Source of the DNA: an uncultured Moraxellaceae bacterium
Lineage (GTDB): Bacteria > Pseudomonadota > Gammaproteobacteria > Pseudomonadales > Moraxellaceae
Assembly (NCBI GenBank): GCA_964347985.1
Contig: CAYGBB010000001.1
Span: 1 to 33,837 of the forward strand
Direction of reading: 5' to 3'
Length of the DNA: 33,837 bases
Part shown: positions 20,147 through 33,680 of the stretch, in pieces
How positions within the stretch are numbered: position 1 is the first letter of the stretch
Layout: every line of letters begins with the position of its first letter
Notes under the pieces: generated by a model
The model's database searches: none
The model's input: the letters and a program-made list of their open reading frames with translations, nothing else
Told to the model about the DNA's origin: nothing
Translations under genes and position numbers: made by a program

Positions 20147-22861
20147 TTAAAAAATTTCCAGCAGGGGGTATGTTGCCAAGGCTGTGGCGGCGCTTGAAAA
20201 GGTCGCCCAGATGTGGGCACGTATGTCTGAGTTGCCTTGTGATGCCTGCAGGATGGCTGCCATGCGATTGCTGACTCCGAGCTTGGCAAAGATGTTTTTC
20301 AGATGCCATTTCGTGGTGGAAAGCGCAACGCCGATCCGGGTACTGATTTCGTTGTTGCTGAGCCCGTTGCGCAACAGTTGCAGTACTTCCTGTTCCTTGG
20401 CGGTCAAAAGGGTGGAGTCATCCCGTAATTCTGCGTCTGCACTGAGGTTGCCCTGCAGCAAATCCTTGAACATTTCCACATAAATGGCAGGCAGGGGCAG
20501 GTTGCCGACTTCGTGACAGCGTTTGAGAAATCCTCCCAGCCCAGGTGCTTCGTCAAATACCGTGCGGTTTATGCAGGCGATGCTGTAGTGGTCGACCAGT
20601 TTTTTCAGTCGATGCAGAGCAACATTGTCGTCACCCATGAGATGGCGGGTCAGGACAAGATTGGCCTCCACGACTACGGCTCGTGAGTTGGCTCCACTTT
20701 TTTTCAGGGCGCCCAGGATTATCTCAAGGATATGTTCGGCCTCTTCAAAACGCTGGTGAGTACATAACCAGAGTGCGGTAGCCAGCCCGTAACGTTCCCA
20801 TGCCTCGTCGTAGGGGCGGGTGCGTCGCCATGTGCCATTGGCCAGCCGTTCCTGCAGTTGAGAGGCCTCAGCAATGCGGTCCATTGAGTCACGATCATTT
20901 TCTGCATGAGCCTGACGCAGTTCTTCAAAGACCACCTGACTCATGAAGCGATCATAATTCCCGAGTTGCAGAATGCGCTTGAGTTGGGAGAGCAAGCGGG
21001 CTGCCCTGGCAGTCTCGTGGCGAAGGCTTAACAGGCGCGAGAGGGTGAGATAGGTGTAGGCAATGATTTCTGTTGCGCAGGAGGAGCTGACTACCGGGAC
21101 CAGCTCTTCGAGAAGATTAAGTGCGTCTTGTGTCCGGTTCTGTTCATATCGAACGACGGCAGCAGCCGTTGCCGCATTAATCCAGGTTGGTGTATGCGGA
21201 ACGTGGCGCAGTTGCTGGTAATTGTTTTCTGCATTCTGCATGGCTTCAAACATGCGCCCGGTGTTGCGGTGGCAGAGAATCAGGATGAGGTCGGCATAAC
21301 TGCCCAGATAGTCATAACCAAGCTGCTCCAGAACGACTTTTCCCTGTTCGGCGTACTGGAGCGCATTGTTGAAGTCGCCATGCAGAAGATAGTGATACGC
21401 CAGAATAGCCAGAGAGAATGCACGAATGTCATGATTCTGGCTGGACCGTATCAGCAGGGCCTGGTCGGCATTGAGCCGGAAATCAGTGTCATGCTGGAAA
21501 AGTTGCAGCATCAGTTCCAGGAAGAGCAGTGTGGATTCGTCAAGTGTTTGCCTGTTTTCCTGTTGCGGCAGGGCATCCAGATAGTAGCGGGCCTGATTGA
21601 ACCGGCGCGACAGTATCAGTGCGCTGATGAGGGATATGCTGAGATCCCGATCCGAAAGAACAACGTCGTCGGGCAGCGGGTCCAGCCACCGGATGATGTT
21701 GCTGCAGTCGCCCTTGCGGGACCAGCGCTCACAGCTTTTGCGCAGAACTTCCAGAAAGAATCCGGGACGTTTTGTCTGCTCGGCATGGCTCAGTGCCATT
21801 TCATCTTCGCCACGGAGAAGCCACTCGCGAGCCGCTGCTTCGTGCAAAGAGGACTGACGATCCGGTTGTTCTATGGTCAGGCGGTTGCGCAGGAAGTCCT
21901 GGAACAAGGGGTGATAGCGAAACCAGCCCGGGCGTTGCTCGATCATGTGCAGGAACAGTCCCTGCGACATCAGGCGGTCAATCAGACCTGCCGAGTTTTC
22001 GCGCACTAGTACGGTATCGCACAAGGCAGCATCAAAACGCTCGAGCAATGACGAGAACAATAAAAAGTCACGCTGATCTTCTGATAATCCACGCAATACC
22101 ACGTGAGCAAAATAGTCCACCAGTTCTGGCTGCGAACCACTGAATGCCGACAGGGCACTGTCTCCGGCACGCGCACAGGCGAGCAAGGCAATTTTCACGC
22201 CTGCCATCCAGCCCTCGGTTTGTTGCAGCAGCTGGCTGATATGGCTGGCATCAGGAATCTCAATGTCCATTTTTACTGCCAACGCACTGACCTGGGCTGG
22301 CGTAAGGCGCAGGTCATGCCCATCAATCAGCAGCAGGCGGTTGGCCAGTTTGAGGCGGCTCAGGGAAAAATCCGGGTATTCACGGGTGGCAATGATGAAA
22401 TGCACTTGCGCTGGCAGGTACTCGAGCAAGGCAGAAAAGGCATCCTGGACCAGTTGGTGACGGGCTAGCTGGAAATCATCGAGCACGATGAACAGTTCAT
22501 CTTCCACTGCCTGAAAGGCCTGCAGCAGCGACTCGGCTACGCTGTGTGCAGGCAAATGGATGTCGGCGCCCAGCGGGGTATAGGACACCGTATCAAAGTT
22601 GGTGACCACTTCACGCAGGGCATCGGTCAGGCGGGTAAAGAAATGCACCGGGTCGGCATCGCGAGGGTCGAGAACCATCACGACAGTACGTCGTTCCGGT
22701 AGTTGCCATCGCCATTGCTGGAGGAGGGTGGTCTTGCCGAAGCCGGGAGGGGCAAGCAACAGCGTCAGGGCATAGTCGGCACTGCGGTCCAGCAGGCTCA
22801 GCAGTTCTGGACGAGCAATTCGGTTGCCCGGCTCGCGACCGTGGTTTTTTTTACCAGGCAT
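20147..22861 (-). CDS. Large ATP-binding LuxR-family (LAL / MalT-like) transcriptional regulator
   Basis: It has N-terminal Walker A LLLAPPGFGKTTLL, Walker B FIVLDDFQ, a long helical/TPR-like middle and a C-terminal LuxR HTH LTAKEQEVLQLLRNGLSNNEISTRIGVALSTTKWHLKNIFAKLGV. AGGGAG lies 7 nt before ATG 22861. The alternative ATG 22867 is too close to the SD. Confidence 0.9.
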   Translation of the reverse strand: MPGKKNHGREPGNRIARPELLSLLDRSADYALTLLLAPPGFGKTTLLQQWRWQLPERRTVVMVLDPRDADPVHFFTRLTDALREVVTNFDTVSYTPLGADIHLPAHSVAESLLQAFQAVEDELFIVLDDFQLARHQLVQDAFSALLEYLPAQVHFIIATREYPDFSLSRLKLANRLLLIDGHDLRLTPAQVSALAVKMDIEIPDASHISQLLQQTEGWMAGVKIALLACARAGDSALSAFSGSQPELVDYFAHVVLRGLSEDQRDFLLFSSLLERFDAALCDTVLVRENSAGLIDRLMSQGLFLHMIEQRPGWFRYHPLFQDFLRNRLTIEQPDRQSSLHEAAAREWLLRGEDEMALSHAEQTKRPGFFLEVLRKSCERWSRKGDCSNIIRWLDPLPDDVVLSDRDLSISLISALILSRRFNQARYYLDALPQQENRQTLDESTLLFLELMLQLFQHDTDFRLNADQALLIRSSQNHDIRAFSLAILAYHYLLHGDFNNALQYAEQGKVVLEQLGYDYLGSYADLILILCHRNTGRMFEAMQNAENNYQQLRHVPHTPTWINAATAAAVVRYEQNRTQDALNLLEELVPVVSSSCATEIIAYTYLTLSRLLSLRHETARAARLLSQLKRILQLGNYDRFMSQVVFEELRQAHAENDRDSMDRIAEASQLQERLANGTWRRTRPYDEAWERYGLATALWLCTHQRFEEAEHILEIILGALKKSGANSRAVVVEANLVLTRHLMGDDNVALHRLKKLVDHYSIACINRTVFDEAPGLGGFLKRCHEVGNLPLPAIYVEMFKDLLQGNLSADAELRDDSTLLTAKEQEVLQLLRNGLSNNEISTRIGVALSTTKWHLKNIFAKLGVSNRMAAILQASQGNSDIRAHIWATFSSAATALATYPLLEIF

Positions 22862-22965
22862 GGCCATCTCCCTGATTTTTATTGTTTTTTTATGGATGAA
22901 CGACTGCTTTCAGGTGATGAAAGGCTATCACGGATACCCAAACCGGTAAACATCGTGTTCCTTTC

Positions 22966-22996: not shown

Positions 22997-23074
22997 AAGG
23001 GGGGCTGATGGATGCTGGATGTGCAAGATGCACTAGCCGGAATCCATAATGCCGGTGCCAGGAGGGTGACCATC

Positions 23075-25393
23075 ATGAAAACAACAAGAACAGGACAGGC
23101 ACTGGGGTTATTGACCCTGCTGATACTGCCCGGCTGGAGCCTTGCGGCTCCCAGCTTCCCCGAGCAGGAAAAGGTCTGTAATTACGATGCCACGCGCGAG
23201 TTCAGGCGTACGCTGTCGGCCATGTCATTTCCGACGCCAGTAGCCAGCAGCATGCTGGTGAATGGTGTCCAGGCATGGACAGCTGGTTCCACGGCTGTTC
23301 CAACGATCAAGCCGGGCGACACGATTACCTTGCGTGGTACCGGCTTTGGTCAGGGAACGGATATCGACTTCAGCAAGATCATGATTGGCAACAGCCGGGT
23401 GCTGGAAACCGATCTCAGCATGTACAAGCAGATGCTCGATATTATTGCCGAAGTAAATTACGAGCTGGATCAGAAACACAGCACCTGGCCGAAGGATGTT
23501 CTGGGCTGGACGGATACCGAAGTGAGATTCAAGGTGCCGGTACATGCCAGTGCGGGTCCGATCCGGCTTCAGGTGCAGAAGCGTGTCGGACGCATGGGCT
23601 CTCTGACCAAACCGGGGCAGGCTCACAATGTGATTGACGCACAAACCAAGCGTATCACCAGTGATTTTTATCAGCACAAATGCGATGTGGTTTCCGAGCT
23701 GGGTGCCGAGACAAAGGCCATCACACCCATCAAGGTCAATGTCAGCAATACCGGACTGACAAGCCTGGTCGCACAAGGGCGGAAGATTTTCTGGTCATAT
23801 GATTACAACATCGGGCTGGCGCACAAAATGCGCGATCTTGATTGGGCCAAGATATTTTCATACAAGACAACAGACCCGATCACGCGTCAGCCGGCTGACC
23901 CGCGCAAGCTGTTTGGTGCTTACAAGACAGTAGCAGGAGAGGTGCCGGCCGAGGCGATCAACGATGTGTATTTTGATCCCTACCCCATGCCGAATCCGAT
24001 TCCGGGCCTGCTGCTGGTAACGCCGCAAAAAACCAAGGGCAATACGAAGAACACTGGTTGGGTAGGGTACCGCACGGCGGAATCGAGCCATCCCTACACG
24101 GGCAATGGCGCGTGGTCGGGGTTCAACTGTGCATCATGTCATGGCTATCGCATCAGCTACGAGAAAACACCCGGCCAGCAGGTAACGAAGGTAGTCCCCG
24201 GGTTGCCCAATCCGGAATGGAGCATGAAGTGGACGGTGCTGGGTGACAAGGCCGGTGCAACCACGGCGACATTCAAGGGAATTGAAGGCAATGAGGCCGG
24301 GCCATCCTGGGCACCGGGTAATGCCGACATCGACAAGACTACGCTTCTGTACTACATGCCAGCCGGCGTAGGTGAACACAACATCGTGCGCGCGACGGGT
24401 GAAGGCAGTGAGACTGACAATGATTACCAGTTCTCGCCGATCACGATTCCCAATGTGACTAACTACATGCCGATCCGGCGTTCGTTGTCGCACACGGAAT
24501 CGTACGTGGGGTTTGAAGGCTCCTATATCCATTCCGAGGAACCGGATGGTGCCATGGGCTCGATGCGTGCGGATGACCTGAAGGCGCTGACTGCCTACAT
24601 GACGACGCTGGATGGTGATGACAATGATCTGCGCAATGTGGGTCTCTATCGCTGGCTGAAGTCGAAAGGCCAGCTTGCAGCACAGACCGGTAATGCATCT
24701 CTGACGGAGGGCCAGTTTGTGCAAGGGGGATGGAAATCATTCCCGGGTGTGGTCAGCTCGGTTAATCAGGGCAAAACAGCGTTTGATCGCGATTGTGCCA
24801 GCTGTCATGGTGACAAGCTGGGTGCCAATACCAATGAGCGCATGTTCCGTCTGGACCAGGTTGGTCGCTTCTTTACGCCAACGATTTACCAGAAGGATCA
24901 GCAGTCCATTCGTGCCACTTTCCTGCGCGACATGTACTGGGTGCAGTCACGTGGCCTGTTGACTGATGGCCATGTGCGCAACATGGAAGATCTAGTGAAT
25001 CCGGATCGTTGTACGGAGGGTACTGCGCTCTACAACCAGTACTACACCCTGCATGCTGCGGTGCGTCCTGCACTGGGTTCCCCTGACCAGCCTGCCGCAT
25101 GGCCGGACCTGAATCGCAAGGGTGATGTGTTCCGGGTATACAAGAATGTGGAGTACAGCACCACCGACCCGTCTACCAAGCGCAATCGTTTCATTGAGCG
25201 TCACAAGTATTTTGTGACAGTGCCGTGGGATGATGGTCACTACTACTGGGATTACCAGAAAATGCGCCGTGAGTATGGTCCTGGTGAAATGGGAACTGCA
25301 CAGCCCATTGGCATGCCAGCTGCGCCGCATCCCTGGTGTGCAGCAAATGGTGGTGACGTTGATAGCCTGACGCAGTATGTACTGACGCTGTGA
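23075..25393 (+). CDS. Secreted IPT/TIG-domain + di-haem cytochrome c protein (CCP/MauG-like), 772 aa
   Basis: GGAGGG lies 8 nt before ATG 23075. The signal peptide is MKTTRTGQALGLLTLLILPGWSLA. The IPT-like segment is IKPGDTITLRGTGFG...VRFKVPVHASAGPIRLQV. Two CxxCH motifs occur (CASCH at nt 24128-24142 and 24794-24808). The second lies in the context GKTAFDRDCASCHG and is followed by FLRDMYW..RGLLTDGHV..MEDLV, which resembles the CCP PSLRN...PY.H.G segment. Confidence 0.8.
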   Translation: MKTTRTGQALGLLTLLILPGWSLAAPSFPEQEKVCNYDATREFRRTLSAMSFPTPVASSMLVNGVQAWTAGSTAVPTIKPGDTITLRGTGFGQGTDIDFSKIMIGNSRVLETDLSMYKQMLDIIAEVNYELDQKHSTWPKDVLGWTDTEVRFKVPVHASAGPIRLQVQKRVGRMGSLTKPGQAHNVIDAQTKRITSDFYQHKCDVVSELGAETKAITPIKVNVSNTGLTSLVAQGRKIFWSYDYNIGLAHKMRDLDWAKIFSYKTTDPITRQPADPRKLFGAYKTVAGEVPAEAINDVYFDPYPMPNPIPGLLLVTPQKTKGNTKNTGWVGYRTAESSHPYTGNGAWSGFNCASCHGYRISYEKTPGQQVTKVVPGLPNPEWSMKWTVLGDKAGATTATFKGIEGNEAGPSWAPGNADIDKTTLLYYMPAGVGEHNIVRATGEGSETDNDYQFSPITIPNVTNYMPIRRSLSHTESYVGFEGSYIHSEEPDGAMGSMRADDLKALTAYMTTLDGDDNDLRNVGLYRWLKSKGQLAAQTGNASLTEGQFVQGGWKSFPGVVSSVNQGKTAFDRDCASCHGDKLGANTNERMFRLDQVGRFFTPTIYQKDQQSIRATFLRDMYWVQSRGLLTDGHVRNMEDLVNPDRCTEGTALYNQYYTLHAAVRPALGSPDQPAAWPDLNRKGDVFRVYKNVEYSTTDPSTKRNRFIERHKYFVTVPWDDGHYYWDYQKMRREYGPGEMGTAQPIGMPAAPHPWCAANGGDVDSLTQYVLTL

Positions 25394-25451: not shown

Positions 25452-27623
25452 TTACCAGGTCTTCGTTACGCCGACATGAGCACTGAGGCGTTCATCCGGC
25501 AGGCCGCCATCGGCGTTGTACATTGCCGGTGCAATGTTCTTCCGGTCAAACAGATTGCGGATATCGAAATTGAGCTGGTAATTACGTGGCTTCCAGTTCA
25601 CATGAACGTCGGTTCTGAAATGGTCTGGCGCAGCTTTTGCCCGAGTCATGCCGAGTGAGTCGGTACGGGTGCGATCGAGCAGGGCGCGCTCATTCAGCCA
25701 GGCCTCCCAGTCTGTCAGGAAGCGGTAACCCAATCCCAGGTTGAGTGTCCATGTAGGGAAGGCGTTGTATTCACTCTCGGATGTCTTGTTCCTGCTTGTC
25801 ACATAGGCGGCATTTCCCTCCAGTCGCCACGCCCCCCACTGGTGATGATGGCTGAGTTCAACGCCCTGGGCATTGTTGCGCCCTGTATTCTGGTACTGGT
25901 TTTCTCCCAGCCCAACCGGGCCGAGCACAATGCCATCCTTCCAGTGGCTGGAGAACAGAACCAGTTCGGTCGCTTGTTGCTGGCTCTTGTATTGCCAGAT
26001 CATTTCAAGGGTATCGATGGTTTCTGCCTTGATGTCCGGGTTTGGCAGCTGGTTCGAGCCGGTGCCCCCGCCATATTGCTCGGCAGCGCTGGGTGCGCGG
26101 AAGGCGTGACTGTAAAGCAGTTTACCCGTCCAGTTCTTGCTATGCGTCCAGATGAGTCCAAGACGGGGCGATGTTGCGCTGCCCACATCGCTGTAGCCAT
26201 CCCAGCGCAGCCCGTAGACGGCAGCAAATTTGCCATCATGAAAGTCACTGCGTACATGCAGCAGGGCATGATCAATGTGGCGGGAAGCGCCTTTGTACGG
26301 GGACTGAGTTTCCACATAGAGGGGGGCATTATCGGGTTGGCGCCGGACAAAGGCGTCGGTGATGGTCAGCCAGTTGCGTCCGAATCCAACGGCCCAACGG
26401 GTATTGCCGAACAGGGCATTTTGTGGACGCAGCAGCGCCTCCAGTCCACGTCTCCGGTCAGCAGTGCCCTGCGACAGTGTGTGAGGACAGTAGAGGGGGG
26501 AAACACCGGTTTGGCCCGGGCTGGTGCGGCATGGCAGGACAACATTACCGAGGGTGGTGAGTGAGTCAGGGTAGTCCTGCAGGTTGGCTATCCAGGTCTG
26601 GTCACTTTCCCACTGGAAAGCCTTTATTTCGAGTTCAAGCGAGTGTGTCAATTCTCGCTGGTGCAGTAATTGTGCTTGCCAGAAATCAGACTCCTGCCCC
26701 ATGACGTCATGCGCACCAGAAAGGCTCAGGCTGGCAAGTTGAAAACTGTTTTGCAGTGGTTGATAGAACTGGGTGCCAATGGCGGGAAACCCGCGTGAGT
26801 CATAACGGTTGCCATACAGGCTGAGTCGCCATAGACCGAAGTCTGATGGGCTTTCGCCACTTTCAACATGCAGGAAACCGGAGGCATCATGTTCATGATT
26901 GTCGCGTACACCAGTGCCTGCCTGCCCGGTGAACGCATCAGTGTATGTATAGGTAAGATCACGGTCGCCCTGATGGGTCAGGGCCAGTCCGCCATCAATG
27001 CGAATGGTTTTTGTGGCGGTATTGCCGATCAGGCTTAGCGATCCGTCTTCATGGCTGCCAGCACGTGCAGCAAGGTGCCTGCTGGCATCACCCAGGCTGC
27101 GCGTGTGGATATCCAGTACACCATGAAAGGCATCCGAACCGTAGAGGGTGCTGCCGGGCCCCCTGATCATTTCGATCCGGCCCAGCAGATCCAGCGGGAT
27201 GAAGGGCAGGTCGTAGGCAGAAGTGGCGTAGCTGTAATTGTTGAGCGGGACGCCATCCAGCAAGGTGGCGATACCGCGAGCGGATAATTCGGTGGCGTAT
27301 CCCCGCACAGCAAACATGCGTGCGCCACCCAGAGATGTGTAGGTGGATACAGCAGGCACCTGTTCCAGGGCTTCGCCCAGTGTCTGGGCGGCGCGCCGTT
27401 CCCAGTCTTCCGGTTGCAGCACAGCGACAGAGGCGGCAGCGTTGAAAACCGTTTCTTCATAGGGAGAAGCCACCGAGACGCGCACTTCCATCAGTGACTC
27501 AAGCGGCATCTCGAACAGATCCGGTTCGGCGGACATTGCTAATGGCGCAGCGCACATCCACGCCCATGCAGCAACTGAAAGAATGATTGTTTCAAGTCTG
27601 GCATGAGCCTGGTGGCGAGACAT
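25452..27623 (-). CDS. TonB-dependent outer-membrane receptor
   Basis: It has a signal peptide, then DLFEMPLESLMEVRVSVAS (the N-terminal motif of the TBDR subclass linked to YfiR/CHASE8 modules). The plug contains IEMIRGPGSTLYGSDAFHGVLDI. A long beta-barrel follows and the protein ends in an aromatic residue (..TKTW). The start overlaps the kinase stop (TGATG). Confidence 0.9.
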   Translation of the reverse strand: MSRHQAHARLETIILSVAAWAWMCAAPLAMSAEPDLFEMPLESLMEVRVSVASPYEETVFNAAASVAVLQPEDWERRAAQTLGEALEQVPAVSTYTSLGGARMFAVRGYATELSARGIATLLDGVPLNNYSYATSAYDLPFIPLDLLGRIEMIRGPGSTLYGSDAFHGVLDIHTRSLGDASRHLAARAGSHEDGSLSLIGNTATKTIRIDGGLALTHQGDRDLTYTYTDAFTGQAGTGVRDNHEHDASGFLHVESGESPSDFGLWRLSLYGNRYDSRGFPAIGTQFYQPLQNSFQLASLSLSGAHDVMGQESDFWQAQLLHQRELTHSLELEIKAFQWESDQTWIANLQDYPDSLTTLGNVVLPCRTSPGQTGVSPLYCPHTLSQGTADRRRGLEALLRPQNALFGNTRWAVGFGRNWLTITDAFVRRQPDNAPLYVETQSPYKGASRHIDHALLHVRSDFHDGKFAAVYGLRWDGYSDVGSATSPRLGLIWTHSKNWTGKLLYSHAFRAPSAAEQYGGGTGSNQLPNPDIKAETIDTLEMIWQYKSQQQATELVLFSSHWKDGIVLGPVGLGENQYQNTGRNNAQGVELSHHHQWGAWRLEGNAAYVTSRNKTSESEYNAFPTWTLNLGLGYRFLTDWEAWLNERALLDRTRTDSLGMTRAKAAPDHFRTDVHVNWKPRNYQLNFDIRNLFDRKNIAPAMYNADGGLPDERLSAHVGVTKTW

Positions 27624-29992
27624 CAGAGTCGGCTCCCGGGAACAGTGGTACCGGGCCTTGTGCCCGTGATTGGTAACCAGCGACGCAATATGTCCAGCAG
27701 TTCGGCACGCCGGAATGGTTTGCCCAACACATCATCCATGCCGGATTCCATGCAGGCGGCGCGTTCGTCGGCCAGAACACTCGCGGTCACTGCCACGATA
27801 GGAATATAGCGCTTCCGGCCAGCATTGTTATCGGCATCCCGTATGAGCCGGGTTGCGGCAAAGCCATCCATTTCCGGCATTTGGCAATCCATCAGGATCA
27901 GGTCGTATTCCTGCGTGGCCCAGGCCTCAACGGCTTCTCGACCATTGGTGACGATGTCCACGGTACATCCCAGTCCGCGCAACATGGCCTTGGCGACTTC
28001 CTGATTTGTAGGAGTGTCTTCTGCGAGCAGAATACGGAGTCCTTCCCAGGCGGGATCTGGTCGCCGGGAGGGAGACTGGCTTTCATCGACCGGGTTTGTT
28101 TCAAGGCAGCTACGCATGGCCTCATAAATCTCGTGGGTGCGTGCCGGCTTGTTCAGGTGATGTGAAAAGCCTGTGGTGCGTGCGGTGAGCAGGTCTCCGG
28201 GATTCAGCAGGGAAGTCAGCAGGATCAGACGTACACTGGAAAGTGTGGGATCTGTTTTAATCGCAAGGCCAAGGGCAATGCCATCCATTTCCGGCATTTG
28301 CATGTCGATAAGGGCAAAGTCGTATGGGAGGCCATTGTTTTGCGCGGCGCGCAGGGTTGCCAGGGCACTGGCGGCATTGCCCACCGTATCGCAGTGCATG
28401 CCCAGCATGCTGGTCTGGTGCTTGAGGATTTCCTGATTGGTTGGATGGTCGTCCACGACCAGCACTCGCAAGCCATTCAGGTCCGCAGTCATGCCTGAGG
28501 TAATCATTGTTTCCGAGGGCTGCAGCGTCAGGCTGAAGCGAAAGTGAGTGCCTTGGTCAGGGATGCTGTCGACCTGAATGCTTCCTCCCATCAGCTCTAC
28601 GAGTTGTTTCACAATCGCCAGACCGAGTCCGGTACCACCAAAGCGGCGGGCATGTGAGCTGTCCGCCTGAACAAAGGGCTTGAAAAGCTGTTGCAGGGTT
28701 GAGGCATCCATGCCGATACCGGTGTCATGCACGCCGAAAAGCAGGCGAGTGGTCTGGGCTGTGTCGACAGCAATCGACACAACCACCGCCCCCCGTTCGG
28801 TAAACTTGATGGCATTGCTCACCAGGTTGAGCAGGATCTGGCGCAGCCGGTGCGGGTCGCCCTTGACGGCCATCGGTACGTTGGAGTCAATCCGGCTGGC
28901 CAGCTCAAGGCCCTTGCGATGTGCGCGTTCTGCCAGCAACCCCACAACGTCTTCAGTGATCTGCGACGGGCTGAAGTCGATTGATTCCAGCTCCATTTTT
29001 CCCGCCTCGATTTTCGAGAAGTCGAGAATGTCATTGATGATGGTGAGCAGTGCCTCGCCGGAGTTGTGAGCGGTCTCGGCATAGCGCCGCTGCGTAGAAG
29101 AAAGGTCACTGTCCAGCAACAGTTCGGTCATGCCCAGTACCCCATTCATGGGGGTACGTATTTCATGACTCATGGTGGCCAGAAACTGTGACTTTGCACG
29201 GTTGGCTGTTTCTGCCGCATGACTGGCGTCGCGCAGTTCATGTGTGCGTTCCTCCACCAGCTGCTCCAGGCTTTCCCTGTGTCGCTTGAGTTCGGCATCA
29301 CGCAGTTCAATCTGCTCCAGCATTTCGTTGAAGCTGTCGACTAGATGACCGATTTCATCCTGACCACCAGGTTGTGCGCGCAGTGAGTAGTTCTTCTTTA
29401 ATGATACTTTTTCTGCCAGATTGGCGAGATCAACAATCGGTGTGGTCACAAACCGGCGCAATCGCATGCCGAGGATAGTGGTGATGGTCAGTGCAGCCAT
29501 TGCGAGAAGGGCCATCACTAGCAAATAGAACAGCAGGGTGCGCCAGACCGATGAAATATCGGCAGTAATATAGAGCGTGCCCAGTTGCTCGCCTTCAAGA
29601 AGGATGGGTTCGCTGACATGTACATGACCACTGAAATATTGTGTGACGCCGGTCATGTTGTGATGACAGTGGAAATCCTTGCTTTTGTGCAGCTGCAGGA
29701 TGGTGAATATCTTGCCATTTGTAACAACGCAGGCATGCATGACGGAGGGGTCTGCCTGCAGTGAGCCAAGCAAGGCATTTGTTTCTTTTACATCCATGAA
29801 TGCCAGGGCCGCTTGCACATTGTAGGCGGTGGCACGTGCAAGCGTGGAGAGTCGCGTACTGGTGTCGTCATACAGCTTGATGGACGCCACGACAGCAAAG
29901 ATCAGCCAGGCCACCAACAGGGCGGATCCCGCAGACAGAAGCAGAATGCGCATGAATTTCTGGTGCAGGGGTAGGTCACGTAAGTGTGTCAT
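27623..29992 (-). CDS. Hybrid sensor histidine kinase (CHASE8-like periplasmic domain, HAMP, HisKA, HATPase, two receiver domains)
   Basis: The periplasmic segment between two TM helices is [40 protein letters not shown]. It also has a HAMP domain, H-box [16 protein letters not shown] and N/G boxes [25 protein letters not shown]. The receiver domains are VLVVDDHP...[10 protein letters not shown] and ILLAEDTP...[10 protein letters not shown]. Confidence 0.9.
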
Positions 29993-30540
29993 TTTTCCCC
30001 CGACCGCGGTGTACGGGCTAGTTGCAGCATTCGGGCGCTGATTTTCAGGCCGGCCTGCTGTGCGGTATCGAGATTGATCATGAACTGCACCCGGTTTGAT
30101 TCCACAAACAGCTCGATCATGCCGCCATTGTGGGTGAAGTCCGGAGCATCACTTACCGTGAGGGTGGCATTATTGGCAGAAGGCTTGAGCAACTGTGCTA
30201 GCTGGCGTGCCTTGTCCCGCGTAATGAACATGACATGACAACCGGCCTGATCGTCTGCCGGTTCGAGGAGGCGTACCTGCAGCAGATGTCCCTGAGCCTC
30301 ACGGCCATGCAGTTGACGCAGCCTGTTACCAATGTCGTTCTTGCCCATGATGCAGATTTGCATGGGGGCTTCGGGCGCCAGGGCTGTAGTCGGCCATTCC
30401 ACGAACTTGGTGAAGTTGTAGATGAAGGCGGCCTTGACATCTGTTTCCGAGCTGCCTGCATTGGCCAAATCAGCCTGAAGCAACCAGAAAGCAGACGCCA
30501 AAGTCCCGAGCAGCTGCCTGCCTTTTGTCATGGTTTTCAC
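29989..30540 (-). CDS. YfiR-family (DUF4154) periplasmic protein
   Basis: It has a signal peptide ending LANA, and [16 protein letters not shown] is the family hallmark. The stop overlaps the kinase start (ATGA). The start is GTG 30540 or ATG 30531. Confidence 0.8.
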
Positions 30541-30687: not shown

Positions 30688-33435
30688 TTACTTGTCTTCG
30701 CTACGCTGGTGCTTGAAGAACACACCGTTGTCACCGAAGGCAGACACGATCAGCGGGGAGGTCAGCTCCAGTTCACCAATCTTCTTGGCACTGGCACGAC
30801 GGTCCTTTGCATACTGCGTGTTGGTGGACGGGAAGATGGAAGTCTTGATTTCCATCGAGGTGGCGTAGACGTCATACAGCTTCGAGCCGGCACCCAGGGT
30901 GGCCAGGTCGTGACGGAAGTCATGCGGGGTGGAGACAAACTTCGTCTTCACTTCAGGACGCGGCACAAAGTAGATCTGTGTCGGTGCCTTCGGTGTAGCT
31001 ACAGTGGCGCCGGCCTGTGTCACTTCTGACATGTCGTTCATGATCACGAGGGTCGGCTTGGTGCTGACGGCCGAGAACAGGATGGTGGAGCCCAGTTCGT
31101 TGGCATCGGTCGATACATAGTTCGACAGTTCGTTGGCAAAGAAGTTGTAGTTGGTACCCTGACCGGCCAGCGTGTAAAGCGCAGACACGTTTTCCGATGG
31201 CTTGCCGTTCACAAGAGCCTTCCAGGCCAGACCAGGCTGGAACTTGTTGCTTGCAGCCGGATTCTCAGTGACGGACAGACGCAGCAGGCCGTAGTCCGAG
31301 CCCTGGAACAGGCCCGTGTAGCCGTTGGCGGCAACTGGTACAAACTTCACCTTGGCCATGGCAGCATGACGGTGGATCGGCTTGACGTAGTCGGCAGGGG
31401 CGACATCAGTACGGGTCTGCACCTTCTTCCAGAGGATGGAGCTGATCAGGCCGCCAGTATCCGTTTCTGCCAGGGCAGGCATGGTGGTCTTGTACTGTGT
31501 GCGCTTGGCACCGTTCACCCAGAGGTGATCGGCCTTGGCGCTGGCATTCCAGCTTTCGTAGTCAGCGGTCATGTTCAGGCCCCAGGGCTTGAAGGCATTT
31601 TCCACTCCAGTCAGGCTGAGTGCCAGTTCCGGGTTGTGACGCTTGATCACATCCACCATGGTGGTGTTTTCGACCCAGTCGTAACCTACCTGGGTGTACA
31701 CCTCAGGACGGTAGTCCTTGGTGTAGAAGCGGTCAGTCATCAGACGACGCGAAGCGTTCAGGATAAAGATCTGGAAGGCGGTTTCACCGAAGGCGAAGCC
31801 ATCCGGACGGGTGGTTTCCGCCATGATGCCGACGATGGTATCGATCTTCTCGATATCGTTGCTGTAGATACGCTTCAGGTTGGCCAGTGTCGCCGGATCG
31901 GTCGTCAGGTCTTCGAACTTCGTGATCGGGTTCAGCTGGATCTGGCGGCGGAACTCGTTGTAACGCGGAACACCTCGCTCGCGGTCACGCAGGATGTCGG
32001 TCGTTGCCAGATCGATGTTGCCGACCAGCGGGATATCCAGGTTGCGCAGGAAGTTCGGGTAGTTGTTCAGGGTCAGCGAACCCGGGTTGGTAATACCGAA
32101 GGAGTACCACATGCGCGACGGGGTTTCCGTGTTCAGCATGTTCTCGGCCTTGCCTTCGCGGGTGTCCGGCAGGGAAACGGTCTTGACCGGAGTATTGTCA
32201 CCAATGTCGTAAACCTGGACATTGTCACGCATCAACGGGTGCATGCGGTACACGGAAACAAACTCTTCGGTCAGGGTATACGGGACGCCATAGTTGTTCG
32301 GGTTGGCCGAACCGACCAGGCCAGCAATGGCGTGATCCAGCGTGCCGCTACCGACATTACCAGCGAGGTTGGAGTCAGTACCGAGGATGGTCTTGATGAA
32401 CGAGTCGGTCTTGGACAGGTCTTCGTACCACTGGCGGGTTTCTGCCTGGTACTTGTCACGGCCTGAAGCGTTACCGATGAGGCCCCACCAGTTGGCGTAC
32501 ATGGCGCGCTCGGTGACCGGGTTGGCGATCACGGCAGGTGTCCATTCCACCGTGTGGATTTTCGCCATCAGTGCAGAGGTGACCAGACGGGCCTTGTCAT
32601 ACAGCCACTGGTCGGATGCGGTCGGGTACGTCTGCTTCAGCCGGGTGGCAATGGCATTGTGTTCCTTGGTGAAGATCTGATGCAGCATGCTCAGACCAAC
32701 CCACCAGTTGTCGTTGAAGCCGGTAACCGGCTTGCCGTTCAGGAGTTCGGTCGGCAGGGTGCCATTGGCATTGATTTTCAGCTTGCCGTCGACAAAGGAA
32801 CGGATCTTGTCGTTCTGGGCCTTGCTGCTGCCATACAGCTGCGAGCCATCCCACCAGTGGGTGTTGTGGTTGCGGTAAGTGTTGATCTTGCCGGCGTCGG
32901 CGGCTGTACGATCCCAGTCGGCCTTGGTACGACGAACATCGAGATAGCCGGTGCCGAGGGCATCACCGGAGGGCAGGGGTACCTTGATCGGGTTGGTGGA
33001 CGGGTTGGGGCCGTGATCCACCCAGTCGTGCACCATGAACTGGATCCATGACGCTGCGATGAAGTTCAGGCTGGGGGCCGGCTTGAAGGGGCCACGGGCC
33101 ATCAGGGTGTTACTGACCTCACGGGGGTTGGGGCTCAGCAGGCCGGTTGCTTCGGTTTCACCCGCAGCAACGGTCGGGTTAACGTTGCGGCCAAAACGCA
33201 CATAGACCGAGCCTTCGGCCGGGTTTGACAGGATGTTGCAGGTACCGTCTTCGGTACGTGCCGTCAGGCTGCGTGTGTCGCAGGTGATGGTGCTGTTGCG
33301 TTTAGGATAGTCCTCGAGGTCAAACATGTTTTCGTCAAGGAGATTGCCGCGCTCTACGGCCAGTGTGATAAGGCCGGCCGCGATACCCAGCGTGCCGAAC
33401 TTGGTCAGTGCTGGCCAAGTTACCCAAATTGCCAT
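30688..33435 (-). CDS. Fatty-acid alpha-dioxygenase / cyclooxygenase-type haem protein (animal haem peroxidase superfamily) fused to a C-terminal domain of about 270-290 aa of unknown function
   Basis: GAGGGA lies 7 nt before the ATG and the N-terminus carries a hydrophobic anchor. Residues about 50-620 are colinear with plant alpha-DOX. Shared motifs are RTEDGTCN, RFGRN, AASWIQFMVHDWVDH, WWDGSQLYG, FTKEHNAI, ARLVTSALMAKIHTVEWT, PYTLTEEFVSVYRMH (catalytic Tyr context), RDRERGVPRYNEFRR and GETAFQIFILNASRRL. The ORF continues without a stop for 294 more residues. Confidence 0.9.
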   Translation of the reverse strand: MAIWVTWPALTKFGTLGIAAGLITLAVERGNLLDENMFDLEDYPKRNSTITCDTRSLTARTEDGTCNILSNPAEGSVYVRFGRNVNPTVAAGETEATGLLSPNPREVSNTLMARGPFKPAPSLNFIAASWIQFMVHDWVDHGPNPSTNPIKVPLPSGDALGTGYLDVRRTKADWDRTAADAGKINTYRNHNTHWWDGSQLYGSSKAQNDKIRSFVDGKLKINANGTLPTELLNGKPVTGFNDNWWVGLSMLHQIFTKEHNAIATRLKQTYPTASDQWLYDKARLVTSALMAKIHTVEWTPAVIANPVTERAMYANWWGLIGNASGRDKYQAETRQWYEDLSKTDSFIKTILGTDSNLAGNVGSGTLDHAIAGLVGSANPNNYGVPYTLTEEFVSVYRMHPLMRDNVQVYDIGDNTPVKTVSLPDTREGKAENMLNTETPSRMWYSFGITNPGSLTLNNYPNFLRNLDIPLVGNIDLATTDILRDRERGVPRYNEFRRQIQLNPITKFEDLTTDPATLANLKRIYSNDIEKIDTIVGIMAETTRPDGFAFGETAFQIFILNASRRLMTDRFYTKDYRPEVYTQVGYDWVENTTMVDVIKRHNPELALSLTGVENAFKPWGLNMTADYESWNASAKADHLWVNGAKRTQYKTTMPALAETDTGGLISSILWKKVQTRTDVAPADYVKPIHRHAAMAKVKFVPVAANGYTGLFQGSDYGLLRLSVTENPAASNKFQPGLAWKALVNGKPSENVSALYTLAGQGTNYNFFANELSNYVSTDANELGSTILFSAVSTKPTLVIMNDMSEVTQAGATVATPKAPTQIYFVPRPEVKTKFVSTPHDFRHDLATLGAGSKLYDVYATSMEIKTSIFPSTNTQYAKDRRASAKKIGELELTSPLIVSAFGDNGVFFKHQRSEDK

Positions 33436-33516
33436 GGTGATGTCCCTCTTCCTTATTTCTTCTGGATTTTTATTGGGGTGCTGATGTCATCAGTCGCCAG
33501 CGAGTCTAGAGAGTGA

Positions 33517-33548
33517 GGGTGGGGGGTGCCCCACCCCTTGGAGGGGGG
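33517..33548 (-). promoter_or_regulatory. GC hairpin plus C-rich CCAAGG box in the dioxygenase upstream/leader region
   Basis: GGGTGGGG-GGTG-CCCCACCC forms an 8-bp all-GC/AT-perfect stem (33517-33536). It abuts the motif CCCCCTCCAAGG on the coding strand (33547-33536). Confidence 0.3.
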
Positions 33549-33608
33549 AATTCGTCTGTAAAAGTGATTATTGGTGACTTGAAAGTCTTCAAATGTGACT
33601 TGATGGAT

Positions 33609-33638
33609 AAAAAAACGGCCGCATAGGCGGCCGTTTTT
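33609..33638 (-). terminator. Rho-independent terminator after the htpX-like gene
   Basis: The sequence is AAAAAAACGGCCGC-ATAG-GCGGCCGTTTTT. On the minus strand a U run of 7 follows the stem. Confidence 0.8.
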
Positions 33639-33680
33639 CTTGTTGCAGGGTTATTTGCGCAATAACCAGAGGAAACACAC

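Follow-up and report, generated by a model that had tools for sequence, protein, structure and literature searches.

Why does a bacterial alpha-dioxygenase (alpha-DOX) carry 294 further residues at its C-terminus, and what might they do? The question is raised by one gene in a 33,837-nucleotide stretch of DNA from an uncultured Moraxellaceae bacterium (contig CAYGBB010000001.1 of assembly GCA_964347985.1); this whole stretch, as analyzed here, is called the window. An earlier note on this DNA had suggested that the gene encodes a fatty-acid dioxygenase fused to a catalase-like domain that converts the hydroperoxide. In this study, a two-domain enzyme of this kind, in which an alpha-DOX is joined to a haem-containing C-terminal domain acting on the 2-hydroperoxide, is given a probability of about 0.5. 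The gene and its parts, in window coordinates, are as follows.

30688..33435, minus strand: complete open reading frame (ORF) of the fusion protein, 915 amino acids, from the ORF listing; stop codon at 30688-30690, no interruption
31573..33435, minus strand: alpha-DOX domain, residues 1-621, from Pfam An_peroxidase and the 4KVJ alignment
31624-33258, minus strand: Pfam An_peroxidase portion of that domain, residues 60-604, E value 5.6e-106
30691..31572, minus strand: C-terminal domain, residues 622-915, predicted to be a catalase-like beta-barrel, from family searches, AlphaFold2 (AF2), Foldseek and hhalign

A conserved fusion and its genetic linkage to alpha-DOX

The uninterrupted 915-residue frame confirms that the ORF runs on for 294 residues beyond the alpha-DOX similarity. 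The earlier note had placed the end of this similarity near ..VENAFKPWGLN, and the phmmer alignment against the PDB does stop at query residue 619 (..AFKPWG), which corresponds to residue 618 of the 621-residue plant alpha-DOX chain.

One genome per species was scanned, and 262 loci were found to encode relatives; counts out of 80 given here and below refer to the best 80 of these 262. All of the best 80 are from Gammaproteobacteria, including Moraxellaceae (Agitococcus, Fluviicoccus), the Pseudomonas alcaligenes/oleovorans group, Alcanivorax, Marinobacter, Oleispira, Thalassolituus, Teredinibacter and others. In about 78 of them, a single frame runs from the DOX domain straight into the extension. 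Identity to the window protein is 57-97% in the extension and 64-97% in the DOX domain, and one relative (locus L003) shares 97% identity with the window. The 90% cluster has 13 members from independent assemblies, every one of 915 amino acids. The ratio of nonsynonymous to synonymous substitution rates (dN/dS), approximate because dS is near saturation, lies at 0.09-0.29 in the extension, similar to the 0.17-0.28 of the DOX domain. The 915-residue cluster members, the roughly 78 fusions and the low dN/dS rule out a read-through or assembly artefact. Thus, the fusion is real and conserved, and the extension behaves as the separate domain that the earlier note took it to be.

The N-terminal part was assigned from Pfam and PDB comparisons. 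Pfam An_peroxidase (PF03098) scores 355.6 bits on residues 60-604, against a gathering cut-off of 25. In phmmer searches of the PDB, residues 46-619 match alpha-DOX of rice (4KVJ, E value 2.7e-113) and Arabidopsis (4HHR, 1.4e-104), and far weaker matches are seen with cyclooxygenases (COX; about 1e-12, with COX-2 at about 2e-12) and with animal peroxidases (lactoperoxidase about 5e-27). The residues and segments that bear on its function are listed below.

33028..33030, minus strand: His136 in MVHDW (residues 134-138), equivalent of the distal haem His by the 4KVJ alignment
32239..32256, minus strand: SVYRMH, residues 394-399, with the catalytic Tyr396 and the proximal haem ligand His399 by the 4KVJ alignment
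31741..31755, minus strand: ASRRL, residues 561-565, Arg-Arg pair for binding the fatty-acid carboxylate; matches MASRRL of rice alpha-DOX
33355..33411, minus strand: hydrophobic helix, residues about 9-27, WPALTKFGTLGIAAGLITLAV, near-invariant in 60+ fused homologues

The equivalents of rice Tyr379, His382 and the distal His157 are all kept in the 4KVJ alignment, and the chain of the Y379F mutant (4KVL) has Phe exactly at the Tyr396 column. AKIHTVEW (residues 291-298) matches rice AKVHTIDW, and ASRRL matches rice ASRRL; the carboxylate-binding residues of the rice enzyme are presumably those numbered His311, Arg558 and Arg559. Because these alpha-DOX hallmarks are conserved, the N-terminal domain can be assigned with high confidence to the alpha-DOX type, as judged from its sequence. 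Its N-terminal hydrophobic helix is probably the helix by which the DOX domain would associate with the membrane. A cleavable signal peptide is unlikely for this stretch, since it is near-invariant and similar to the region of the N-terminal helix in standalone alpha-DOX. Cyanobacterial enzymes of the alpha-DOX type are haem proteins that yield Cn-1 aldehydes (PMC8720084, PMC9305512).

The DOX domain also contains a pair of cysteines, Cys52...Cys66 (ITCD...DGTCN, residues 50-67, window 33235-33288, minus strand). The pair is kept in the fused proteobacterial forms examined and absent from the standalone DOX of Nostoc C117 and from plant alpha-DOX. The two cysteines may form a disulfide or bind a metal; a disulfide would raise the question of which compartment holds the fusion protein.

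Genes for the extension also occur apart from the fusion, and eight cyanobacterial or metagenomic loci with such standalone homologues were inspected. In seven of the eight, the homologue lies at most two genes from an An_peroxidase gene of the alpha-DOX type, and all seven neighboring DOX genes carry KIHTVEW, S/AVYRM/LH and ASRRL. The An_peroxidase gene is directly upstream of the homologue in Nostoc C117, Lyngbya and the metagenomic locus L089; in a further metagenomic locus, L090, the DOX gene overlaps the homologue by 38 nucleotides, and some pairs are 77 base pairs apart. Other recurrent neighbors are genes for a patatin or lipase, a GMC oxidoreductase, an old yellow enzyme and a RoxA-like dihaem cytochrome c. 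Being fused in one lineage and adjacent in another, the two proteins appear to work together, and a functional coupling of the two parts is highly likely. The linkage at seven of eight loci also backs the fusion idea of the earlier note.

In Calothrix sp. PCC 6303 (locus L085, 3776-11700), a transposase fragment separates the alpha-DOX gene from the standalone partner, and genes for a GMC oxidoreductase and then a patatin follow. The arrangement in Nostoc C117 (L001) is identical except that it lacks the transposase fragment. This cluster has the look of a compact operon for fatty-acid oxidation. At locus L088 (6771-7849), a gene for a 78-residue 2Fe-2S ferredoxin shares 7 nucleotides with the start of the homologue, which hints at electron supply to the homologue in that lineage.

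Family, predicted fold and conserved residues of the extension

A word-indexed search with the extension returned 142 relatives, some of them fused and many of them standalone cyanobacterial proteins of about 300 residues; the latter (from Nostoc, Calothrix, Lyngbya, Trichocoleus and Stenomitos) share 40-45% identity with it over the full length. They are annotated as hypothetical with one exception, whose UniRef name is 'Catalase'. An exhaustive profile search revealed 2,482 clusters at 50% identity with E values of at most 1e-3, 663 of them at or below 1e-30. The clusters are mostly standalone proteins of 290-350 residues, with few other architectures. In three longer entries (P0141, P0158 and P0263), the domain is joined to seemingly eukaryotic ones (PTHB1/BBS9, somatomedin B) or to An_peroxidase in a fusion of 1,356 residues. 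The family thus appears to extend beyond bacteria, and some of the long proteins may be gene-model artefacts.

None of the libraries searched gives this family a name. The extension alone has no match among Pfam, NCBIfam or PDB sequences even at an E value of 10. Pfam and NCBIfam models match no family member, and with Pfam Catalase (PF00199) neither the window domain nor the 41- and 108-member sets gave a match at E values of 10 or below. The sensitivity of this last test is low, as PF00199 likewise misses the genuine mini-catalase domain of Anabaena. A PDB profile match to interferon-activable protein 202 (E value 0.006) was dismissed because it disappeared with a deeper alignment. Within the searchable literature, the sole trace of the extension is a phylogeny of alpha-DOX (PMC8720084), in which C-terminal extensions were trimmed from the alignment before analysis.

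The structure of the extension was predicted with AF2 from a 41-sequence alignment and then from 108 representatives at most 50% identical. The mean predicted local distance difference test score (pLDDT) was 86.6 in the first run and 94.5 in the second, where the predicted TM-score (pTM) was 0.92. The predicted layout consists of two N-terminal helices followed by eight main strands with short helices interspersed. In both runs, the top Foldseek match in the PDB was the 33-kDa catalase-related protein MAP_2744c of Mycobacterium avium (3E4Y/3E4W), with an E value of 2.5e-3 and then 2.1e-4 and a probability of 0.99 and then 1.00. The coral allene oxide synthase (AOS; 1U5U, 3DY5) took ranks 2-3 in the second run (probability 0.54-0.57); in the first, its two entries stood at ranks 4 and 6 (probability 0.21), with an unrelated pericyclase between them. 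The remaining matches had probabilities of at most 0.12. The best structural matches are thus catalase-related haemoproteins of the kind that the earlier note had in mind (MAP_2744c and then coral AOS), but the superposition is poor (TM-score about 0.39).

Profile-profile comparison was made with hhalign between the 108-sequence family profile and the family of MAP_2744c, whose sequence was taken from a PDB alignment and whose family, annotated 'catalase family peroxidase', matches PF00199. The alignment comprises 211 colinear columns with a score of 31 (P value 0.0015). None of 240 column- and block-shuffled controls reached this score (mean 15-16, standard deviation about 3, maximum 27), and the reversed profile scored 14.7. 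A merged profile of the MAP family, the Anabaena domain and coral AOS left the register unchanged at a weaker score (P value 0.017). For this single pre-specified comparison, the sequence signal is real but faint. Considering the fold matches together with this signal, a relationship of the C-terminal domain to the catalase fold is likely.

Conservation was counted in the 108-member family alignment, where the residues aligned to the catalase haem pocket are the most conserved positions of the family. The segments concerned are these.

31366..31383, minus strand: KPIHRH, residues 685-690, candidate distal His688 with Lys685 at position -3; from conservation and hhalign
31273..31281, minus strand: Arg719-Leu-Ser721, putative equivalent of catalase V-R-F-S; from the hhalign pairing with I-R-F-S of MAP_2744c
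31219..31236, minus strand: PGLAWK, residues 734-739, with the invariant Lys739, putative equivalent of catalase R-G-F-A-V-K-F; pairs with RGMAVKF
30703..30738, minus strand: FGDNGVFFKHQR, residues 900-911, with Asp902 and His909; pairs with GGDIVVFDPMR of MAP_2744c
30796..30819, minus strand: TQYAKDRR, residues 873-880, variable loop; gap-rich column and block of lowest pLDDT

Five peptides quoted in the earlier note were all found, in the order given: KPIHRH (685-690), LLRLS (717-721), PGLAWK (734-739), AGQGTNYNFF (757-766) and TQYAKDRR (873-880). Its reading of the first three as the distal-His strand, the V-R-F-S equivalent and the R-G-F-A-V-K-F equivalent was recovered by hhalign, above 240 of 240 shuffles. 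His688 is present in 106 of 108 members and Lys or Arg at 685 in all 108; Lys685-x-x-His688 pairs with R-A-L-H of MAP_2744c, and true catalases carry R-V-V-H at this site. Arg719 (108/108) and Ser721 (100/108) would correspond to the catalase V-R-F-S, in which the Arg contacts a haem propionate and the Ser bonds the distal His. Lys739 is invariant (108/108). Further on, Asp839-Phe840 pairs with the D-F of the catalase D-P-D-F/Y helix; position 839 is Asp in 95 and Glu in 11 of 108, and Phe840 is near-invariant in the 41-sequence alignment only.

The other two peptides fared differently. GQGTNYNFF had been aligned with VGNN.PVFF of catalases, but the hhalign register differs and no equivalent of the distal Asn is established; Gln759, conserved in 100 of 108, lies in the region where the two registers disagree. 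The proposal that TQYAKDRR holds the proximal Tyr did not survive: the Tyr875 column is gapped in 70 of 108 members and falls in the least confident region of the model, and Tyr875 was rejected as a haem ligand on account of the gap-rich column.

The C-terminal segment has the pattern Gly901-Asp902-x-x-L-F-F-x-His909-x-Arg, with Asp902 in 108 and His909 in 107 of 108 members. In the alignment, His909 falls on the proline of F-D-P in catalases, which is packed against the haem on its proximal side. This pairing makes His909 the obvious candidate, and the sole one, to replace the absent proximal Tyr ligand.

A possible two-step reaction and its alternatives

Because homology extends over the full length of alpha-DOX and the catalytic and carboxylate-binding residues are kept, the DOX domain would be expected to introduce O2 into a free fatty acid at C-2 and so form a 2-hydroperoxy fatty acid. 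The C-terminal domain would be a stripped-down catalase barrel that has kept the distal pocket (His688, Lys685, Arg719-x-Ser721, Lys739), whose His, Ser and Arg serve in catalase-related enzymes for the activation of hydroperoxides, and lost the proximal-Tyr helix, with the Asp902...Phe-Phe-x-His909 tail in its place. It would bind haem with His909 rather than Tyr as the proximal ligand, take the labile 2-hydroperoxide straight from the DOX domain and convert it. Possible products are a 2-hydroxy acid (by reduction), a 2-oxo acid (by dehydration) or a Cn-1 aldehyde plus CO2 (by directed cleavage), among which the data do not discriminate. In cyanobacteria, the neighboring lipases or patatins would supply free fatty acids, and further conversion of the products could fall to the GMC oxidoreductase or old yellow enzyme. 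As the partner stands beside alpha-DOX in cyanobacteria and is fused to it in Gammaproteobacteria, the two most likely act in sequence.

The separate parts of this proposal differ in strength. That the C-terminal domain binds haem is slightly favored, and that it converts the hydroperoxide is close to an even bet. We describe it as a catalase-fold-like family whose members probably act in the manner of the catalase-related hydroperoxide-converting enzymes. It is not filed here as a member of the catalase family, because the Pfam Catalase test failed and the proximal Tyr is missing. A more far-reaching version, which we regard as doubtful when taken as a whole, holds that the extension belongs to an unrecognized branch of the catalase fold, very widespread with its roughly 2,500 clusters, that discarded the Tyr helix, binds a His909-ligated haem and forms a dedicated two-step pathway with alpha-DOX; this pathway would lead to a specific product in place of the spontaneously formed aldehyde (e.g., a 2-oxo or 2-hydroxy acid) and would be controlled by a MalT-like regulator, notably in oil- or lipid-degrading Gammaproteobacteria.

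Several observations weigh against the two-domain haem enzyme. The TM-score to 3E4W is 0.37-0.39, with a root-mean-square deviation of about 11 Å, and lies below the usual threshold for a same fold; in these models the resemblance is distant and gives no clean superposition. The hhalign probability is 16.7% against the MAP_2744c family and 2.7% against the merged profile, while two genuine mini-catalase families reach 96.8% against each other. Comparison with the Anabaena mini-catalase domain showed no similarity (probability 0.2); a homologue search from that domain, which belongs to a mini-catalase-lipoxygenase gene on pCC7120gamma, returned 2 proteins. Hidden Markov model (HMM) searches of the PDB with the family profiles gave no meaningful match. 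The family stops about 40 residues short of the proximal helix of MAP_2744c (R290...Y294) and has no invariant Tyr, the best conserved being Tyr626 (95/108) and Tyr648 (81/108). With the proximal Tyr and its helix absent, haem binding is not assured, and we infer the placement of His909 relative to the haem site from the alignment alone. The standalone homologue at L088 has no DOX neighbor, and no biochemical data were found for any family member.

Some of these points would suit a haem-free descendant of the catalase fold, acting as a binding or channelling module without haem redox chemistry. Such a module might capture the 2-hydroperoxide or the aldehyde, promote acid-base decarboxylation through His688, His909 and Asp902, or deliver fatty acids. 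The missing proximal helix, the lack of an invariant Tyr and the very low similarity to true haem-containing catalase relatives all fit this idea, and the weaker Foldseek matches (probability at most 0.12) include lipocalins and nitrobindin, which are lipid-binding beta-barrels. However, the conserved distal His, the Arg/Lys at -3 and the Arg-x-Ser hold and activate haem in catalases and ought to have diverged after a loss of haem, and the near-invariant His909 is available as a ligand. A haem-free module is therefore considered unlikely.

The domain could also be an unrelated beta-barrel whose likeness to catalase arose by convergence and chance motifs, with a role that has nothing to do with hydroperoxide chemistry, such as oligomerization or targeting to membranes or lipid droplets. 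A TM-score below 0.4, an hhalign probability below 20% and the lack of any Pfam, NCBIfam or PDB HMM match would be expected of such a protein. This explanation is nevertheless improbable, as the two AF2 models share their best match and only catalase-related chains exceed a probability of 0.12; moreover, the 211-column alignment matches the invariant residues of the family to the active site of catalase and outscores all 240 shuffles. Strong purifying selection on polar His, Arg, Lys and Asp residues suits catalysis better than targeting. The domain may also be a haem peroxidase of the MAP_2744c kind with a protective or general role, reducing organic hydroperoxides or H2O2 before they inactivate the dioxygenase or harm the cell, without a specific pathway product. 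Its best Foldseek match, MAP_2744c, was reportedly described by Pakhomova et al. in 2009 as an organic-hydroperoxide-dependent peroxidase. The tight linkage to alpha-DOX, by fusion, by overlap and at seven of eight loci, points instead to a dedicated partner, and no reductant-supplying gene is consistently linked, so that a merely protective peroxidase is very improbable.

The logic of the proposed two-domain enzyme is shared with four known systems (a gene pair of Nostoc, the lipoxygenase fusions of coral and of Anabaena, and the fungal DOX-P450 fusions), from which the window protein differs by its alpha-DOX class, its C-terminal catalase-like domain and its divergent, Tyr-less partner. Outside these four, MAP_2744c of M. 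avium ssp. paratuberculosis (3E4W/3E4Y) resembles the extension in its length of about 300 residues and in the shared order of R/K-x-x-H, R-F/L-S, G-M/L-A-x-K, D-F and G-D..F. It differs in matching Pfam Catalase, in its C-terminal helix Arg290...Tyr294 and in having no linkage to a dioxygenase; the window family has about 60 extra N-terminal residues (the two helices), and identity is about 10-17%. In the coral AOS-lipoxygenase (3DY5, 1U5U) and the mini-catalase-lipoxygenase of Anabaena PCC 7120, a fatty-acid oxygenase is likewise fused to a catalase-related domain that converts hydroperoxides. There, however, the oxygenase is a non-haem-iron lipoxygenase, and the catalase domain is N-terminal rather than C-terminal and has a Thr-His distal pair and a proximal Tyr (..RVAVY353 in coral AOS), unlike the window family.

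Gene pairs of a comparable kind occur in Nostoc punctiforme, whose partner protein was reportedly found by Brash et al. in 2014 as a recognizable catalase relative; the window partner is fused, undetectable by sequence searches and without the Tyr helix. The Nostoc pair consists of a linoleate 10S-dioxygenase and an adjoining catalase-related 10S-hydroperoxide lyase (Brash et al. 2014, as cited in PMC9579011 and PMC13049297). Both cases thus pair, genetically, a bacterial haem dioxygenase of the peroxidase-cyclooxygenase type with a small catalase-fold protein that consumes the hydroperoxide (in the window, by prediction). The Nostoc dioxygenase is a COX-like 10S-DOX with its partner in a separate gene, whereas all DOX neighbors examined here are of the alpha-DOX type. 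The fungal DOX-CYP enzymes (Ppo, linoleate diol synthases, 8R-DOX-AOS; PMC13049297) also have an N-terminal COX-like haem dioxygenase and a C-terminal domain that transforms the hydroperoxide, but this domain is a P450 with a Cys ligand, and linoleate is oxygenated at C-8, C-9 or C-10 instead of C-2. Plant and cyanobacterial alpha-DOX (4KVJ, 4HHR; CsDOX, CalDOX, LepDOX; PMC8720084, PMC9305512) are full-length homologues of the N-terminal 620 residues and end where the extension of the window protein starts.

Genomic setting and biological meaning

The following features surround the fusion gene.

33436..33660, minus strand: 5' intergenic region with the hairpin terminator GGCCGCCTATGCGGCC and T run of the upstream gene, then the ribosome-binding site AAGGAAGAGGG and ATG; from reading of the sequence
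20147..22867, minus strand: MalT-like regulator of the LuxR family, 906 amino acids, AAA_16/STAND, TPR and GerE; from Pfam and NCBIfam
23012..25393, plus strand: exported protein of 793 amino acids with two CxxCH haem-c motifs, a TIG/IPT domain and a signal-peptide-like N-terminus
25452-30540, minus strand: three-gene cassette encoding a TOL_0243-type YfiR-like DUF4154 protein, a CHASE8 hybrid histidine kinase with two receiver domains, and a TonB-dependent receptor

A consensus scan of 33436..33660 found no sigma-70 site. A MalT-like regulator of about 880 residues is the most conserved neighbor of the fusion, present at 57 of the 80 loci and usually directly upstream on the same strand; it probably controls expression of the fusion gene. 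In the Pseudomonas group (L020-L056), type II secretion genes (for the gspD secretin, gspC and the gspE ATPase) adjoin the regulator/fusion pair in about 13-19 loci.

The exported dihaem protein has a faint NCBIfam match to dihaem cytochrome c peroxidase, and no relative was found for it in the PDB. A homologue of about 800 residues lies near the fusion gene at 13 of the 80 loci, and RoxA-like dihaem cytochromes lie near the alpha-DOX/partner pairs of the metagenomic loci L089 and L090. The protein may be an accessory lipid-oxidizing enzyme of the same regulon, a link that is tentative. Between its gene and the fusion gene sits the three-gene cassette. The YfiR-like and kinase genes are missing downstream of the fusion at 79 of the 80 loci, L007 alone having them, and the TonB-dependent receptor has no close homologue at any of the 80. 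This near-absence from related loci led us to reject the cassette genes as functional partners and to regard the cassette as inserted DNA with no bearing on the fusion. Two antisense ORFs lie within the fusion gene, 31366-32466 (plus strand, 366 amino acids) and 32554-33051 (plus strand, 165 amino acids); no evidence was seen that supports them as genes, and ORFs of this sort commonly arise in GC-rich coding sequence.

Enzymes of the alpha-DOX type are under development as biocatalysts for fatty aldehydes and are assumed to act alone, their 2-hydroperoxide product being thought to fall apart spontaneously. The partner described here is fused to alpha-DOX in hundreds of Gammaproteobacteria (among them Alcanivorax, Marinobacter, Oleispira and the Pseudomonas alcaligenes/oleovorans group) and adjacent to it in cyanobacteria. 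Such a conserved and dedicated partner implies that the bacterial 2-hydroperoxide is processed enzymatically, and the natural product and physiological role of bacterial alpha-oxidation may therefore differ from what has been assumed. In sum, a hydroperoxide-converting C-terminal domain would give the first functional handle on a large family that is nameless in Pfam and NCBIfam, and would extend the pairing of fatty-acid oxygenases with the catalase fold to a third oxygenase class. It would also offer a natural test of whether a catalase fold can work without its hallmark Tyr ligand.

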